From a virus (lineage: Duplodnaviria; Heunggongvirae; Uroviricota; Caudoviricetes), in the IMG/VR virus record IMGVR_UViG_2602041669_000008: a DNA stretch of 31,073 nucleotides; one strand, written 5' to 3'. Position 1 is the stretch's first letter. Each line of letters opens with the position of its first letter. A program made the translations under genes and the position numbers. The notes beneath the pieces are model-generated. The model was not told the DNA's origin, did no database searches, and saw only the letters and a program-made list of their open reading frames with translations. This document shows, in pieces, positions 1,224 through 27,482 of the stretch.

Positions 1224-1382
1224 AGTTACGGCCTCATGTACAGGTTTAACAACCTGCTACCCGCTGCTAAACGGGTGGCAGGGCGTGACGGGGTTAGCAG
1301 ACTGGCGTACATGAAACCAGCAGGCCGAAGCCTCCCCATCACGCCCCACCATAATTTGGGCGTAACGCGGTTTTAGGGACAT

Positions 1383-1530
1383 AAAAATACCGCAATATCG
1401 GAAATCTGCGGTTGTCCGCATGTACATTCAGGCTGCTAAACCCGGTCGCAGAATTTGCTACGACGGCGGAACTATAAGCCTGAACGACAGGAAGATCAAT
1501 AGGGCAGTGTGCAATGGTAGTTTATTTTCC
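1383..1530 (-). ncRNA. Candidate c4-like structured leader/antisense RNA between a C1 operator and icd-like copy A
   Basis: Minus-strand hairpin ACCGCA/UGCGGU (1389-1412) followed by a U-run, about 145 nt downstream of the operator at 1541-1557; no ORF; sequence unrelated to the equivalent region of copy B. Confidence 0.3.
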
Positions 1531-1540
1531 TCAAAAAATC

Positions 1541-1557
1541 AAATCTATTAGAGCAAT
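1541..1557 (-). promoter_or_regulatory. C1 operator-like site (ATTGCTCTAATAGATTT, 16/17 to the consensus ATTGCTCTAATAAATTT as I recall it)
   Basis: Direct read of the minus strand; sits at the head of the icd-like/ant transcription unit. Confidence 0.6.
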
Positions 1558-5894: not shown

Positions 5895-6020
5895 TAGGTC
5901 CGAAGAGGAGTTTACGTCCAGCCGCGCATAAAAATCAATAATCATTAGAACAATAAATTTTGAGAGAAAAATCCCACTCCACCAGCAAAAAACTGGATTG
6001 TTTTTCATAGTTGTTTGACA

Positions 6021-6595: not shown

Positions 6596-7447
6596 ATGAT
6601 AAATTATGTCTACGGCGAACAACTGTACCAGGAGTTCGTCAGCTTCAGGGATCTCTTTCTAAAAAAAGCTGTTGCACGCGCCCAACACGTTGATACAGCC
6701 AGCGACGGTCGTCCTGTACGCCCGGTTGTCGTTCTACCGTTCAAAGAAACTGACAGCATTCAGGCTGAAATTGATAAATGGACTTTAATGGCGCGGGAAC
6801 TGGAACAGTACCCAGACCTCAATATCCCAAAGACTATTTTATATCCAGTGCCTAACATCCTTCGCGGTGTGCGCAAGGTTACAACTTATCAGACAGAAGC
6901 TGTGAACAGCGTCAACATGACCGCTGGACGCATTATTCATCTGATTGATAAGGACATTCGCATCCAGAAAAGCGCGGGGATCAATGAGCACAGTGCGAAA
7001 TACATAGAGAACCTGGAAGCAACAAAAGAGCTAATGAAGCAGTACCCGGAGGATGAAAAATTCCGTATGCGTGTACACGGCTTTAGCGAAACAATGCTGC
7101 GCGTCCACTACATTTCCAGTAGCCCTAACTACAATGATGGTAAATCAGTTAGTTACCATGTGCCACTGTGTGGCGTGTTTATCTGCGATGAAACTCTCCG
7201 TGATGGAATTATCATCAACGGTGAATTCGAAAAAGCAAAATTTAGCCTTTATGACTCCATAGAACCGATCATCTGCGACCGCTGGCCGCAAGCAAAAATA
7301 TATCGCCTGGCAGATATTGAAAATGTAAAAAAACAAATTGCCATCACTCGCGAAGAGAAAAAGGTTAAGTCAGCCGCATCAGTTGCGCGCAGCCGTAAAA
7401 CCAAGAAGGGGCAGCCAGTAAACGACAACCCCGAAAGCGCGCAATAA
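6596..7447 (+). CDS. c1: C1 immunity repressor (283 aa)
   Basis: Track ORF with strong RBS GGAGGAGG; length equals P1 C1; sits next to loxP; many cognate operator motifs across the window. Confidence 0.85.
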   Translation: MINYVYGEQLYQEFVSFRDLFLKKAVARAQHVDTASDGRPVRPVVVLPFKETDSIQAEIDKWTLMARELEQYPDLNIPKTILYPVPNILRGVRKVTTYQTEAVNSVNMTAGRIIHLIDKDIRIQKSAGINEHSAKYIENLEATKELMKQYPEDEKFRMRVHGFSETMLRVHYISSSPNYNDGKSVSYHVPLCGVFICDETLRDGIIINGEFEKAKFSLYDSIEPIICDRWPQAKIYRLADIENVKKQIAITREEKKVKSAASVARSRKTKKGQPVNDNPESAQ

Positions 7448-7479: not shown

Positions 7480-8598
7480 TTATTCAGCCGCCACCGGTTT
7501 TAACAAGCCAGCATCGAGCAGTTTACGCGTCAACCACTGCTGGCCTTTACCCGTTAATTGGGGCGTCAGCCGTATCTGGTAGCCATTTTCATCATCCAGC
7601 ACCACTTCTTTCACCGTGAAATACCCCGCGTTGATGTACTGCTGGAACGGCACATTTTTACGTCCACCGGACGCTATCAGGATGCCGTTCTCCCGTAACC
7701 AGACAAACAGCGCGTTTTGCTTAAGTCCAACAACCTTTGCAAAATTCCCAATCAGGATCCCTTTAGCTACTGATACCCGGTCGGCAAAATCGACTTTAGG
7801 AGCGGCGGCCACCAGCTGCTGATTTAGCTGGTGGGCTTTCTGTTCCAGAAGTTGCTTTTGTTCAGCCAGTTCGGCAGCCAGGCGTAGGGCTTCAGGAAGC
7901 GTCTGGGGGATTGCGATCGGTTGCTGTTCTTTTTGTCGGAAGTAGCTGTCTTCCAGTTTTTCAAAGAATGCCCATGCCTGATCGGTTTCGAGCATTTTAG
8001 CGTGGCGGGCTGCGCCGCGTTCTGTCCAGAGGGTGAGTGAGCGAACATTGCGAGCAATTTTTACAGAGTAGTTTAAAGCTACTCTGTGCTTCAACTCGCG
8101 CAATGATTCTCCTTCAACTTTGAAAAAGTGCTTCCCTTCAACAAAGCGTACTTTGTTCTCATGATGATTTTGGCGAATACGGATTGTTTCTGTCCCATAC
8201 CCTCTAGCAAGAGTCTCGGTTGTCACTACACGCACTCCCTGCCATTCCAGAACGGGAATTTCATCAGACTGATTCTGAACAACCACCAGCTCCGATTCCT
8301 GAACTGAAGGTGCATGAATTTTTTCTAATTTAACGTTATTTGCTTTCATTCTGTGTGCCTCCTTGCGTGCTTCGGCTGCGACGGTTGCGTAATTCAGATG
8401 ACCCTGTTCGAGCAGGTATTCACGGATATCAGACAACAGGATACGGTGAACCGCGTTCTTGTCCTTTCTCCGGTAAAGTTGTTTGGTGATCATGAAGTAG
8501 TTGGCAATAACGCCTGGTATATCCCTGGTACTGATACAGGCAGTGTGCTGTTCAATTGCCTCGATAATCTCTTCACGGGTGACTAATGACGTTCTCAT
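7480..8598 (-). CDS. ant: Antirepressor (372 aa; Bro-N/Rha-like N-terminal region, KilAC-type C-terminal domain)
   Basis: Track ORF; C-terminal motif ...VAKGILIGNFAKVVGLKQNALFVWLRENGIL...; start overlaps the icd-like stop (ATGA). Confidence 0.8.
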   Translation of the reverse strand: MRTSLVTREEIIEAIEQHTACISTRDIPGVIANYFMITKQLYRRKDKNAVHRILLSDIREYLLEQGHLNYATVAAEARKEAHRMKANNVKLEKIHAPSVQESELVVVQNQSDEIPVLEWQGVRVVTTETLARGYGTETIRIRQNHHENKVRFVEGKHFFKVEGESLRELKHRVALNYSVKIARNVRSLTLWTERGAARHAKMLETDQAWAFFEKLEDSYFRQKEQQPIAIPQTLPEALRLAAELAEQKQLLEQKAHQLNQQLVAAAPKVDFADRVSVAKGILIGNFAKVVGLKQNALFVWLRENGILIASGGRKNVPFQQYINAGYFTVKEVVLDDENGYQIRLTPQLTGKGQQWLTRKLLDAGLLKPVAAE

Positions 8599-8789
8599 AG
8601 TCCCTCCTGAGCAGAAGCGTTAACAGGGAGGCACCAGTAACTGAGAGAATTGCGTGAATCAGTGGAAAAACGGGCAGAGAAAATACATGGGGCGTCAGGA
8701 AGCTGAGAGCGGGCCTCATCTTCTGTTGGTGCAATAACGAAGTGATAGTGACGTTTTTGGCAGGAGTAAAAGCGCCAGATAAATTCAGG
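7588..8789. repeat. Direct repeat copy B (matches 1-1196)
   Basis: See copy A; divergent patch at about 8047-8225, inside ant. Confidence 0.85.
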
Positions 8790-8816
8790 ATGAGTTGGGG
8801 TAGGGATAGTAGCCAT
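8595..8816 (-). CDS. icd: Icd-like small protein (73 aa), translationally coupled to ant
   Basis: ATG 8814-8816 with AGGAGG 8 nt upstream, in frame with track ORF 8595-9044; MATIPTPTHPEFIWRFYSCQ... Confidence 0.5.
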   Translation of the reverse strand: MATIPTPTHPEFIWRFYSCQKRHYHFVIAPTEDEARSQLPDAPCIFSARFSTDSRNSLSYWCLPVNASAQEGL

Positions 8817-8981
8817 ATTGGCAGCCTCCTTAGACGTTGGTATGTAACCACCGCAGAAGAGACCAATCTTGCTGGCGGTGGACTGTACGGAGTTGGCCTT
8901 ACTGGCGTCCAAGGTAACCAGCCTACCCGAAGGTAGCCCCATACAGCCCACCATTGTAGAGGTGTGCGTGTACGCCGATAC

Positions 8982-9125
8982 AAAAAAAAGACGCGAGCGG
9001 CGTCTGTATCGCCTTAGACTTAAGCGGGAGGCCAATCCCGGCACCCGTTTTAATGAGGTGCCTGATAAGCATAAACCGAAAATGCCTCAAGGCGCAAGAG
9101 GTCAGGCTCAATGTAACATCGGTAG
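8982..9125 (-). ncRNA. Candidate c4-like structured leader/antisense RNA upstream of icd-like copy B
   Basis: Begins just below the operator at 9136-9152; hairpins GGCACC/GGUGCC and CGGGA/UCCCG; ends in stem AGACGC/GCGUCU plus U8 (8982-9005); no ORF. Confidence 0.35.
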
Positions 9126-9135
9126 TTAAAAAACA

Positions 9136-9152
9136 CAATTTATTAGAGCAAA
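9136..9152 (-). promoter_or_regulatory. C1 operator-like site (TTTGCTCTAATAAATTG, 15/17) heading the icd-like/ant unit
   Basis: Direct read; lies immediately after the pacB stop. Confidence 0.6.
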
Positions 9153-22528: not shown

Positions 22529-22578
22529 TCCTGTGATTGATTGGATACATGCCGCGCCTTACGGCATGTTTTTATTTT
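22529..22578 (+). ncRNA. Candidate antisense small RNA overlapping the RBS of the 28-aa peptide gene
   Basis: CATATT -10-like hexamer at 22517-22522; motif TGATTGATTGG at 22534-22544; stem CATGCCG/CGGCATG (22548-22568) followed by TTTTTATTTT; no plus-strand ORF. Confidence 0.3.
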
Positions 22579-22601: not shown

Positions 22602-22618
22602 AGATTTATTAGAGCAAT
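22602..22618 (-). promoter_or_regulatory. C1 operator-like site (ATTGCTCTAATAAATCT, 16/17)
   Basis: Direct read; overlaps the stop codon of the HAD-like gene. Confidence 0.6.
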
Positions 22619-23143: not shown

Positions 23144-23176
23144 AAAAAAATGCTGGTGGGAGCACTCCACCAGCAT
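23144..23176 (-). terminator. Intrinsic terminator on the minus strand between the 420-aa gene and the HAD-like gene
   Basis: 10-bp perfect stem ATGCTGGTGG/CCACCAGCAT followed by U7 on the minus strand, ending just before the HAD RBS. Confidence 0.55.
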
Positions 23177-23196
23177 TAAAAGTGACACTGTAACTA

Positions 23197-24459
23197 TCAG
23201 CGAACGTAAATAGTGCCGCCGTTCTCTTTTTCCCATGCATCGCTACGTGCATAGCAAACATCGAGAAGTCTTCTTGCCGCAGTTTCCTCTAAACCCAATT
23301 CGACAACCAACTGCTCATGACGGCGGGTAACCACATCAAACAGGGTATGCAGCCCTTTAGTTGCCAGATCATCAATGAATTCCGGTTCGAACGGCAGCTC
23401 TGCATCTGCCAACATAACCTCTTGCGCCCACTCAACTCGACGGACCAATTCCGGGCGACGGCTTTCCATCTCTTTACAGATCAATTCATGGAAGAACTCT
23501 ACCCAACCTTCCGGCTGGAACTCGCGGAAAATTGCCAACGGCTGGAAGTTTGGCATCAACCATTCGTTGATTCGGATATCAATGGCATAGCCCATGTCGC
23601 AGCAGAACTGATAAGCAAAGTCCAGCTTAGAAACGATATAAGGACGCTCGTTATTGAACTCTTTAGGCGATGAGATCCCATAAGCCAGGAGGCGCGGGAA
23701 GAAGGAGATTTGCCCTAACGTCGGATGAAGTTTGCTTGCAGGGAAACGGCGCTCAGTAATGCCATACATTTCCTTCTTGAGCGTCGCAAATTTGGCATTC
23801 TCATTAACCAGCGCGGTAACCTCTGCTTTTTTATTAGCAAATGCCACGCGCGCCTCGCTTGCATCTTTAATAGTTTTTTTGAGCTGTTGGTTAAGGTCGG
23901 CGACCTGCTTACGCAGTTCCTGTCGCTCGCTTTTAGCTTTGTTATAGCGTTTCTCAAGGTTAAAAGGATCAAGTTTCATGATCTCTTTATATTGAGATTT
24001 TAGCGTTGAAATCTGTGAGTTCCGCAGTTCAACCATCGCGGTCATTTCATTGAGTTTTGTTTCCAGCTCAATGCTTATACGTTCGGCATTATCAGCACGC
24101 TGGTTGGCGTCATGCGTCGCATCGTCGATCGCGTCCTGTTGCTGGCGTTTCAAATGTTCAATTTCCAGCTGAAGCTCTTCAATTTCTTTACCCTTCAGAC
24201 CGAGATCCAACTGCATATTTTCAGCTGCATCTACCAGGGAGTTATGGCTATCAGCTTCTGCGTTATAAACATCAATAAGCTGTGCGTGAAGCATCTCCGC
24301 TGACTGAACCGCATTATCAAAAAAACGTGCTGTGAGGTCATCACAACTAACGCGGCGTTGCGCGGCCCGGATGTTCTGGATAATGGCCGGGATACCGGCA
24401 TTCAGGACATCAGGGATACATACATTTTCGATTGATTGGTTTTGTGCTGAAGTGCTCAT
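23197..24459 (-). CDS. Hypothetical protein (420 aa; coiled-coil N-terminal half)
   Basis: Track ORF; CCAATCAATC lies within the first 10 codons. Confidence 0.65.
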   Translation of the reverse strand: MSTSAQNQSIENVCIPDVLNAGIPAIIQNIRAAQRRVSCDDLTARFFDNAVQSAEMLHAQLIDVYNAEADSHNSLVDAAENMQLDLGLKGKEIEELQLEIEHLKRQQQDAIDDATHDANQRADNAERISIELETKLNEMTAMVELRNSQISTLKSQYKEIMKLDPFNLEKRYNKAKSERQELRKQVADLNQQLKKTIKDASEARVAFANKKAEVTALVNENAKFATLKKEMYGITERRFPASKLHPTLGQISFFPRLLAYGISSPKEFNNERPYIVSKLDFAYQFCCDMGYAIDIRINEWLMPNFQPLAIFREFQPEGWVEFFHELICKEMESRRPELVRRVEWAQEVMLADAELPFEPEFIDDLATKGLHTLFDVVTRRHEQLVVELGLEETAARRLLDVCYARSDAWEKENGGTIYVR

Positions 24460-24460
24460 T

Positions 24461-24679
24461 TCAAAGTTCCGTATTAGCTTGTGCTTCGGTCATTTTTCCT
24501 AAGTATGAAGGAGGAAGGACTACGCAATTTGTATCCAGTCCCTCACCTATGGCAGCCTGTAAAATTCTGGCTAAGGTGAGTCTCTTGTTGCGATACCTGG
24601 TGATGACATGCCTGATACCGCCGGTCGGCGTAACAAAGGCGATCAGCCAGTAGTGATATTTCCGTCGGAATGGCCACAT
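24461..24679 (-). CDS. Small hypothetical protein (72 aa)
   Basis: Track ORF; AAGGTG 5 nt upstream of the ATG; a C1 operator overlaps its promoter region. Confidence 0.5.
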   Translation of the reverse strand: MWPFRRKYHYWLIAFVTPTGGIRHVITRYRNKRLTLARILQAAIGEGLDTNCVVLPPSYLGKMTEAQANTEL

Positions 24680-24693
24680 AGTGCACCTTGTAG

Positions 24694-24710
24694 ATTGCTC
24701 TAATAAAAAA
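24694..24710 (+). promoter_or_regulatory. C1 operator-like site (ATTGCTCTAATAAAAAA, 14/17)
   Basis: Direct read; in inverted orientation to the site at 24743-24759. Confidence 0.5.
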
Positions 24711-24734
24711 CGTGATGAGTGTACATCACGTTTT
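24705..24734. terminator. Bidirectional terminator-like hairpin between two C1 operators
   Basis: A-run, stem CGTGATG/CATCACG, then TTTT. Confidence 0.45.
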
Positions 24735-24742
24735 AAAAATAT

Positions 24743-24759
24743 GGAATTATTAGAGCAAT
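24743..24759 (-). promoter_or_regulatory. C1 operator-like site (ATTGCTCTAATAATTCC, 14/17)
   Basis: Direct read; immediately after the stop of the glycosyltransferase-like gene. Confidence 0.45.
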
Positions 24760-24760
24760 A

Positions 24761-25462
24761 TTATTCTGATTCTCGCTCAAAAAATGAGCTGATAAGGGGA
24801 AGCCAATCCTCTGACACTTCGCGAGGTCGCGGTTTGCCGTGGAAAAAGATTATTCGGCAGTCTTTTGGTAATGCCCCATTCCCCCTGGAGTAACGCGCGC
24901 TCGCATATTTTGAACCAGGTTCCACAACATCGGCCTTGTAACTTACAAACCATCCTGGATACAGATCCTGAAATGCTGGTGTATCATCGCCCATAACCTT
25001 TCGTAAGAACCCCTGGTCACCCCAACACTCAGTAGTGACACAACGAGAAATCCAACCTTCCGGATCTTGCCAGAATGAACTCCAGATATGCGCTTTAACA
25101 CTATTTGGTATCCACAGGGCACCGCTGCCACGATATTGTGGATGGTAAAAATCCCTAAGCATGGTGAAGCTGGTTGGTGGATGCTCTAGGATTGGGCGTA
25201 TATCACCGGCAATAACCGTGTCCAAATCCAGATAGAACAGATCATCGGTTATATCCGGTCGGAACAACTCGATTTTCGCCCACCAGCCACGGCACTTTTG
25301 CCACTGGTTGATCAATGGGACAACTTTGACGCCAGGTACATGTAAACGCTTCAGGTCTGTCAGGCAAATAATTTCATAGCCTTTTGGCAGTTGATTAACC
25401 AGCCACTGCACATCGGAAGCGTTATAGTCACCACCAGAGCGAAAAACTAAAGCAATCTTCAT
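24761..25462 (-). CDS. Putative nucleotide-sugar glycosyltransferase-like protein (233 aa)
   Basis: DxD-like motif YLDLDTV with upstream W-rich segment; start overlaps the stop of the phosphatase gene. Confidence 0.5.
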
Positions 25463-27319: not shown

Positions 27320-27482
27320 TCATTTCAGCGATTACAGGGTCCACTACAGCATCTGTTTCCTGTTCATTACGCGGCATGATCGATGCCAGCGATTCATAAT
27401 TAGCCTTGGATGACACGACTATTCTCCCGATGTTAATGTGCGCTATATCAAATGGCGCATATGTACTAATTAATTTATTATT

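Follow-up and report, generated by a model that had tools for sequence, protein, structure and literature searches.

The dispersed C1 operators of phages P1 and P7, Op86a and Op86b included, have been catalogued for decades and are the accepted means by which lytic genes outside immC are silenced. The operator pair considered here is thus one that is already known. In the P1 record (AF234172), OpmgRa, the former Op86a, is described as a 'monovalent C1-controlled operator' controlling the expression of pmgR and pmgS, OpmgRb is the former Op86b, and both sites are labelled monovalent; the corresponding sites in the P7 record (AF503408) are Op(sht[a]) and Op(sht[b]). Neither record annotates the hairpin between the operators as a terminator or gives a reason for the presence of two sites, and a full-text literature search found no paper discussing the Op86, OpmgR or pmgR site. 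Those parts of PMC8546580 that quote Lobocka 2004 give the C1 operator consensus as ATTGCTCTAATAAATTT, an asymmetric sequence of 17 bp, and P1 is said there to carry 22 dispersed C1 operators.

The bivalent P1 operators Obanab (Op72ab) and Oc1ab (Op99ab) resemble the pair in that two convergent asymmetric 17-mers lie on one promoter. In Op72ab and Op99ab, however, the halves share 6 bp and together make up an incomplete palindrome of 28 bp, whereas 32 bp separate Op86a from Op86b (49 bp between centres), and this interval contains a hairpin and a -10 hexamer. Canonical intrinsic terminators of enterobacteria and their phages resemble the hairpin in having a short stem-loop with a U-tract directly behind it, close downstream of a unit's final stop codon, but the Op86 stem is A-T-rich (4 G-C pairs among 8 core pairs), is embedded in a promoter-operator region, and has a U-tract and a 5' arm that each serve a double purpose. 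Two known classes were tried as identities for the site and rejected. As a P1 late (Lpa-dependent) promoter, with the box AAGT(G/T)ACTT, ~4 nt and then TANNNT, it reaches only 6 of 9 box positions and has no correctly spaced -10 when set against the 11 annotated late promoters; as a bivalent C1 operator of the Op72ab/Op99ab type, it has its sites 32 bp apart and each annotated as monovalent in P1.

The window, the whole stretch of 31,073 nucleotides that was analysed, is by its sequence a P1/P7-type phage-plasmid. The 1.5 kb around the site are 99.7% identical to P7 and 99.1% identical to P1, and the site region is present in hundreds of P1-like plasmids from Escherichia and Salmonella. The window runs in the reverse orientation of the P1 record, with a gene order of mat, ref and cre, immC with c1, pacB-pacA-lpa, the pmg/ppp morphogenesis genes and then genes 26, 25 and 7. 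From ~12.4 to 28.3 kb, all long ORFs with an assignment to a P1/P7 gene lie on the minus strand. The cognate repressor C1 is encoded within the same element as Op86a and Op86b, and the repressor gene, the operators and the flanking genes are as follows.

6596 to 7447, plus strand: c1, the repressor gene (280 of 283 residues identical to P1 C1.100, 99%)
23149 to 23177, minus strand: strong terminator-like hairpin 3' of pmgS (11 pairs, 6 of them G-C, then TTTTT)
23197 to 24459, minus strand: pmgS (P7 shtB), second gene of the pmgR-pmgS unit (ORF and P1/P7 annotation)
24461 to 24679, minus strand: pmgR (P7 shtA), first gene under the operators (ORF and P1/P7 annotation)
24694 to 24710, plus strand: Op86b, P1 OpmgRb, P7 Op(sht[b]), reading ATTGCTCTAATAAAAAA (annotated feature; matrix score 19.1 bits)
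24743 to 24759, minus strand: Op86a, P1 OpmgRa, P7 Op(sht[a]), reading ATTGCTCTAATAATTCC (annotated protein_bind feature; matrix score 20.1 bits)
24761 to 25462, minus strand: pmgQ (P7 hdmD), last gene of the pmgN-pmgO-pmgP-ppp-pmgQ unit (ORF list and P1/P7 annotation)

The locus matches the P1 and P7 pairs in position, orientation, spacing and flanking genes, and both 17-mers are base-identical to protein_bind features in the two records, with Op86b inverted relative to Op86a. A sequence-only reading of the window had reported this inverted pair of operator-like 17-mers and taken them for C1 operators; both are present where it placed them, and their identity to the annotated sites bears out the assignment. 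Each operator agrees with the consensus at 14 of 17 positions, with all three mismatches in the variable 3' tail, and sites with at most three mismatches number 11 in the window against 0.18 expected from shuffles. The earlier reading had proposed scoring by an operator matrix as the check. A position-weight matrix was trained on 20 operators from the P1 and P7 annotations, with Op86a and Op86b excluded, and compared with 400 first-order Markov simulations of the window; the training sites span 7.3–27.5 bits, and the two operators fall inside this span with the scores listed above, so that the outcome named beforehand as refuting the assignment, a matrix that fails to score the sites, did not occur. 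At a threshold of ≥19 bits, 11 sites were observed in the window against 0.02 per simulated window, and at ≥ ~14.6 bits there were 14–15 against 0.28 expected, which agrees with the earlier count of at least ten operator-like sites. By sequence, orthology and the presence of C1, both 17-mers are members of the C1 operator set; for the predicted binding of C1 at Op86a and Op86b specifically, the source is the notes in the GenBank records.

Several other operator-grade sites in the window can be described in their own right. A 1.7-kb insertion (7480–9152) lies between c1 and pacB and is absent from P1 and P7, where c1 directly follows pacB. It carries a C1 operator-like site, TTTGCTCTAATAAATTG, at 9136–9152 (minus strand; 23.7 bits), an Rfam isrK match at 8984–9061 (minus), a C4 antisense RNA match at 8871–8958 (minus; 75.9 bits), an Ash-family ORF at 8595–9044 (minus) and an antirepressor-like ORF with ORF6N and ANT/KilAC domains at 7480–8598 (minus). 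The insertion looks like a second immI-type module beside immC, and similar DNA occurs in the phages vB_EcoM-673R5, RCS47 and JL22. Another c4-type module (1–1557), downstream of mat, occupies the position of res/mod in P1 and P7, with an operator at 1541–1557 (minus; 25 bits), a c4 a1/b1 target match at 1425–1477 (minus) and a C4 antisense RNA at 1271–1356 (minus; 72.1 bits), followed by icd/ant-like DNA that is 83–95% identical to the immI regions of P1, RCS47 and JL22. Since each of these modules carries one, the 31-kb window has two C4 RNA genes. A weaker site, TATGTACTAATTAATTT, at 27460–27476 (plus; 14.6 bits) is one base off the P7 Op(hdm)/P1 Op83 operator upstream of pmgN. Another, ATTGTTCTAATGATTAT, at 5938–5954 (minus; 16.0 bits), is near lox/cre and stands where P1 has Oc1e (ATTGCTCTAATAATTCT), so the Oc1e operator has diverged in this element.

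The Op86a/Op86b module occupies 66 of the 81 bases in the gap between pmgQ and pmgR. The sequence-only reading had set the site between glycosyltransferase/phosphatase genes and the next operon. The site does lie between pmgQ/ppp and pmgR-pmgS, and Ppp, the neighbour of pmgQ, is a clear Metallophos phosphatase, but the glycosyltransferase part of the description does not hold up as well: PmgQ/HdmD (24761–25462, minus) has no Pfam match at E ≤ 0.01, and while re-annotated RefSeq records label it 'glycosyltransferase', its label in a Salmonella plasmid is 'phosphohydrolase'. Pap, for its part, matches a PNKP-type HAD phosphatase domain. On the other side of the module, the hairpin at 23149–23177 (minus) likely marks the end of the pmgR-pmgS unit; its position between pmgS and pap would place pap outside the pmgR-pmgS unit, and it is unannotated in the P1 and P7 records. 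PmgR is reported to be necessary for infectious particles (a table in PMC10695390; bioRxiv 10.64898/2025.12.28.696737).

The operators sit here chiefly because the module holds a predicted promoter, PpmgR, which the sequence-only reading had missed. The parts of the module other than the operators are the following.

24753 to 24758, minus strand: TTGCTC, predicted sigma-70 -35 hexamer of PpmgR, inside Op86a (P1 record annotation mapped to the window)
24730 to 24735, minus strand: TAAAAC, predicted -10 hexamer of PpmgR, overlapping the 5' arm of the hairpin (P1 record annotation)
24707 to 24734, minus strand: stem-loop on the coding strand, with 5' arm 24734–24724 (AAAACGTGATG), loop 24723–24718 and 3' arm 24717–24707 (repeat search and folding)
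24705 to 24710, minus strand: U-tract, UUUUUU then AUUAG, following the 8-pair core and lying within positions 12–17 of Op86b (read from the sequence)

Along the minus strand, the stop codon of pmgQ (24763–24761) is followed after 1 nt by Op86a (24759–24743), an AT-rich spacer, the 5' arm with the -10 hexamer, the loop, the 3' arm, the U-tract (24710–24705), the rest of Op86b to 24694 and, 14 nt further on, the ATG of pmgR at 24679, with the pmgR Shine-Dalgarno sequence AAGGTG between Op86b and the ATG. The P1 record labels PpmgR (TTGCTC-17-TAAAAC) as 'predicted', and the implied transcription start, ~7 nt downstream of the -10, falls at ~24723 in the hairpin loop. The -10 is without the consensus T at its sixth position and it varies, as TGAAGC in Cronobacter phage JK004, with the key A at position 2 lost, and as TAAAGC or TGAAAC in some P1-type contigs; a rule-based promoter scan listed nothing at the site.

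The same cassette (ATTGCTCTAATAA.. with TTGCTC-N17-TAAAAC) recurs 2.1 kb downstream at OpmgT (Op88)/P2pmgT, 22602–22618 on the minus strand. Like Op86a, OpmgT is right next to the stop codon of the gene before it, in this case pap, and is followed by a hairpin; unlike Op86a and Op86b, it is a single operator. The OpmgT hairpin, ACATGCCG..CGGCATGT at 22547–22569, lies ~30 nt downstream and has its T-run on the plus strand, antisense to pmgT. On the coding strand that hairpin would fall in the pmgT leader, without a U-tract.

The hairpin between Op86a and Op86b has arms of 11 nt each (24707–24717 and 24724–24734) that are 100% complementary around a 6-nt loop, and its stem consists of an 8-pair core extended by three A-U pairs. 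The fold energy is -13.4 kcal/mol, with z = -5.4 to -6.3. The 5' arm begins ~27 nt (24760–24734) past the pmgQ stop codon, at the 3' end of a transcription unit, and on the coding strand the stable stem-loop is directly followed by a U-rich tract, the sequence after the last core pair being UUUUUUAUU. The A6 tail of Op86b is the template of the U-tract, and Op86b reads AAAAAA where the consensus has AAATTT because its positions 12–17 serve as that template. A rule-based terminator scan did not flag the hairpin; the scan probably counts the A-U extension as stem, leaving too few T's in the tail. Rfam returned nothing credible at the site (best match E = 0.24, to a plant miRNA family far below threshold), and the literature search found no P1 transcription start or terminator map and no Term-seq data. 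In the parts examined, the P1 and P7 records carry no terminator annotation at all, and the strong one at 23177–23149 is no exception, so their silence on this hairpin is uninformative. From its structure and conservation, the best reading of the hairpin, held with moderate confidence, is that of a coding-strand intrinsic terminator for the pmgN-ppp-pmgQ unit. Termination may be partial, since the stem has only four G-C pairs, and the use of a terminator before an essential morphogenetic gene that lacks its own late promoter is not obvious.

Taken as a whole, the locus is in our view very probably explained by the catalogued double operator Op86a/Op86b silencing pmgR-pmgS, together with a one-way terminator between the two sites. 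In a lysogen, the geometry and the P1 annotation suggest that one C1 monomer on Op86a would cover the -35 of PpmgR and that a second C1 on Op86b, at ~+14 to +30, would block residual initiation, leaving pmgR-pmgS silent. The hairpin and U6 would most likely stop RNAs that come in from the pmgN-ppp-pmgQ unit, by intrinsic termination and in that direction only, as structure and conservation indicate. Transcripts from PpmgR would lack the 5' arm, because the predicted -10 lies in that arm and the start in the loop, and would so escape termination; this step depends on the predicted promoter and is the least certain of the series.

The direction of the terminator bears on what the sequence-only reading had made of the hairpin, namely a bidirectional terminator, bracketed by C1 operators, that would stop transcription from both sides. 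The hairpin and its flanking runs were correctly seen: in the window the structure is perfectly symmetric, with -13.4 kcal/mol on either strand, and the plus-strand flanks of the core are an A-run (24705–24710) on one side and a T-run (24731–24734) on the other. Bidirectional action nevertheless seems unlikely. Transcription does not converge on the site, as pmgQ, pmgR and pmgS are all on the minus strand, as are the other P1/P7 genes of this part of the window; a rule-based scan found no promoter-like site nearby on the plus strand; and the plus-strand tail is only UUUU, followed by AAAAA.

The comparison among relatives points in the same direction. Three diverged lineages have the module as well: the first comprises Cronobacter phage JK004 (71.5% identical) together with L131, a metagenome contig of JK004-like type, the second is formed by Salmonella plasmids (p21-SA00706-0 among them), and the third is the IMG/VR contig L064. 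On the coding strand, all 11 of 11 pairs are kept in four lineages, few and related as these are, with two compensatory changes (G:C to A:U and A:U to G:C), and the hairpin holds at -13.4 to -14.0 kcal/mol with U6 in all four, JK004 reaching -14.0; the U6 is invariant across the P1-type, Salmonella-type, L064 and JK004-type loci. The G-U wobbles of the JK004 type pair only in coding-strand RNA, and in JK004 and L131, where the coding-strand version is intact, the plus-strand hairpin has a CUUC/CUUU tail and reaches only -5.8 kcal/mol. Among all 24 variants tallied over 126 loci, stem transitions tolerated as coding-strand wobble occur at six sites in at least 15 contigs, those tolerated on the plus strand only are three singletons, and disruptive transversions are four singletons. 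In a control, seven random transitions kept all 11 pairs standard in ~5% of trials, so that, with few and related lineages, the statistical weight of the covariation is modest. The hairpin seems to evolve like a coding-strand RNA terminator and not like a bidirectional one.

The wider comparative sampling added few further types of locus. A PmgS-alignment search of genome contigs gave only two near-identical Escherichia loci, the search of viral contigs gave 80 near-identical P1-type loci and, with a distant PmgS pair as query, a single Citrobacter-type locus, and the plasmid collection gave only P1-type and five Salmonella-type copies. One metagenome scan added one JK004-type and one P1-type locus, as well as an unrelated palindrome (L133; contig WNFR01261073.1, 656–698), a perfect 43-bp sequence, GCTGCTCTAATAATTTTCGATA..TATCGAAAATTATTAGAGCAGC, that matches the operator-pair pattern in a context that is not P1-like.

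More distant relatives keep the arrangement of the operators in another form. Citrobacter freundii plasmid NZ_CP056338 encodes a PmgR homologue that is 35% identical, and upstream of its gene TTACAAACCATACTAATT is followed after 20 nt by AATTAGTATGGTCTGTAG, an inverted pair of 17-mers that differ from the P1 operator. The Citrobacter 17-mer is dispersed over the plasmid, mostly before genes, with 21 matches at ≤2 mismatches against 8.3 expected, and at least 10 of the 21 have ACAGA..ATACTAATT in common. On NZ_CP056338.1 (L135/L136) the sequence is approximately TACAGAC(A/C)ATACTAATT, for example at 45621, 47627, 49239, 49271 and 55923, and only a ..CTAAT.. core is shared with the P1 operator. 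The 17-mer behaves as the plasmid's own repressor site and is presumably the operator of its C1 homologue. A promoter, TTACAA-18-TATCAT, spans the pair, with its -10 between the two sites. In a Pantoea plasmid, 20-nt inverted arms (ACAAAAGATACTAAAATATG) with a 16-nt spacer lie in front of the pmgR homologue. In both relatives the paired sites have neither a hairpin nor a T-run between them. The geometry is alike in Citrobacter, Pantoea and P1, with one site over the -35 and the other a little past the start, and the promoter hexamers of the two relatives are better than those of PpmgR; because this geometry is common to both relatives, the position of the P1-annotated PpmgR is supported despite its weak and variable -10.

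These relatives also bear on a reading of the hairpin at the level of DNA, in which the palindrome would be the site of a dimeric regulator, part of an Lpa-type late promoter, or a cruciform or bend that makes a stretched 'bivalent' operator of the pair. The two operators do converge like the halves of Op72ab and Op99ab, the 5' arm (ACGTGATGT) shares 6 of the 9 positions of the -22 box of late promoters (AAGTGACTT), and 123 of 126 loci have exactly 40 nt between the operator cores. We consider this reading improbable, in that no TANNNT -10 lies at the distance annotated for late promoters, the JK004-type stems stay paired only thanks to G-U, a pairing that would mean nothing for double-stranded DNA or for a protein site with symmetry, the distant relatives keep the operator pair with no palindrome between the sites, and the P1 record labels both sites monovalent. 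Least probable of all, and hardly to be expected, is a true pmgR start upstream of the hairpin, with hairpin and U-tract attenuating or stabilising the pmgR mRNA from within its 5' leader: the annotated -10 is a weak one that relatives do not conserve, and the full 76-nt region can fold to -26.9 kcal/mol with Op86a RNA pairing to Op86b RNA, but the rule-based scan found no alternative upstream promoter, Op86a leaves a single nucleotide after the pmgQ stop, the placement of a -35 in the first operator and a -10 between the two is common to Citrobacter and Pantoea with better hexamers, and a constitutive hairpin with U6 in its own leader would mostly abort the mRNA of an essential gene.

The reading of a double operator with a one-way terminator between its sites can be extended, tentatively, to the 66-bp module as an integrated terminator-promoter-double-operator switch, in which upstream RNAs would stop at the hairpin and RNAs initiated inside it would escape. 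C1 (with Lxc) on Op86b, seated on the template of the U-tract, could then tune the read-through from ppp-pmgQ into pmgR, and the hairpin would have been inserted into an ancestral two-operator promoter of the kind that the Citrobacter and Pantoea relatives still have without a hairpin. We regard this extension as possible but doubtful.

What is modestly new here is that the hairpin seems to be conserved in a strand-specific way, that operator, promoter and terminator signals share the same bases, and that distant relatives have an inverted pair at the pmgR promoter. With the operators long catalogued, these additions carry little weight as discovery, though P1 specialists may find them of interest. 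An inverted pair of operators around the pmgR promoter is an old arrangement, to which the clade of P1, JK004 and the Salmonella plasmids has added the hairpin. Because the inverted pair persists even though the sequence of the repeat differs, the comparison suggests that tight double repression of the essential pmgR is under selection.
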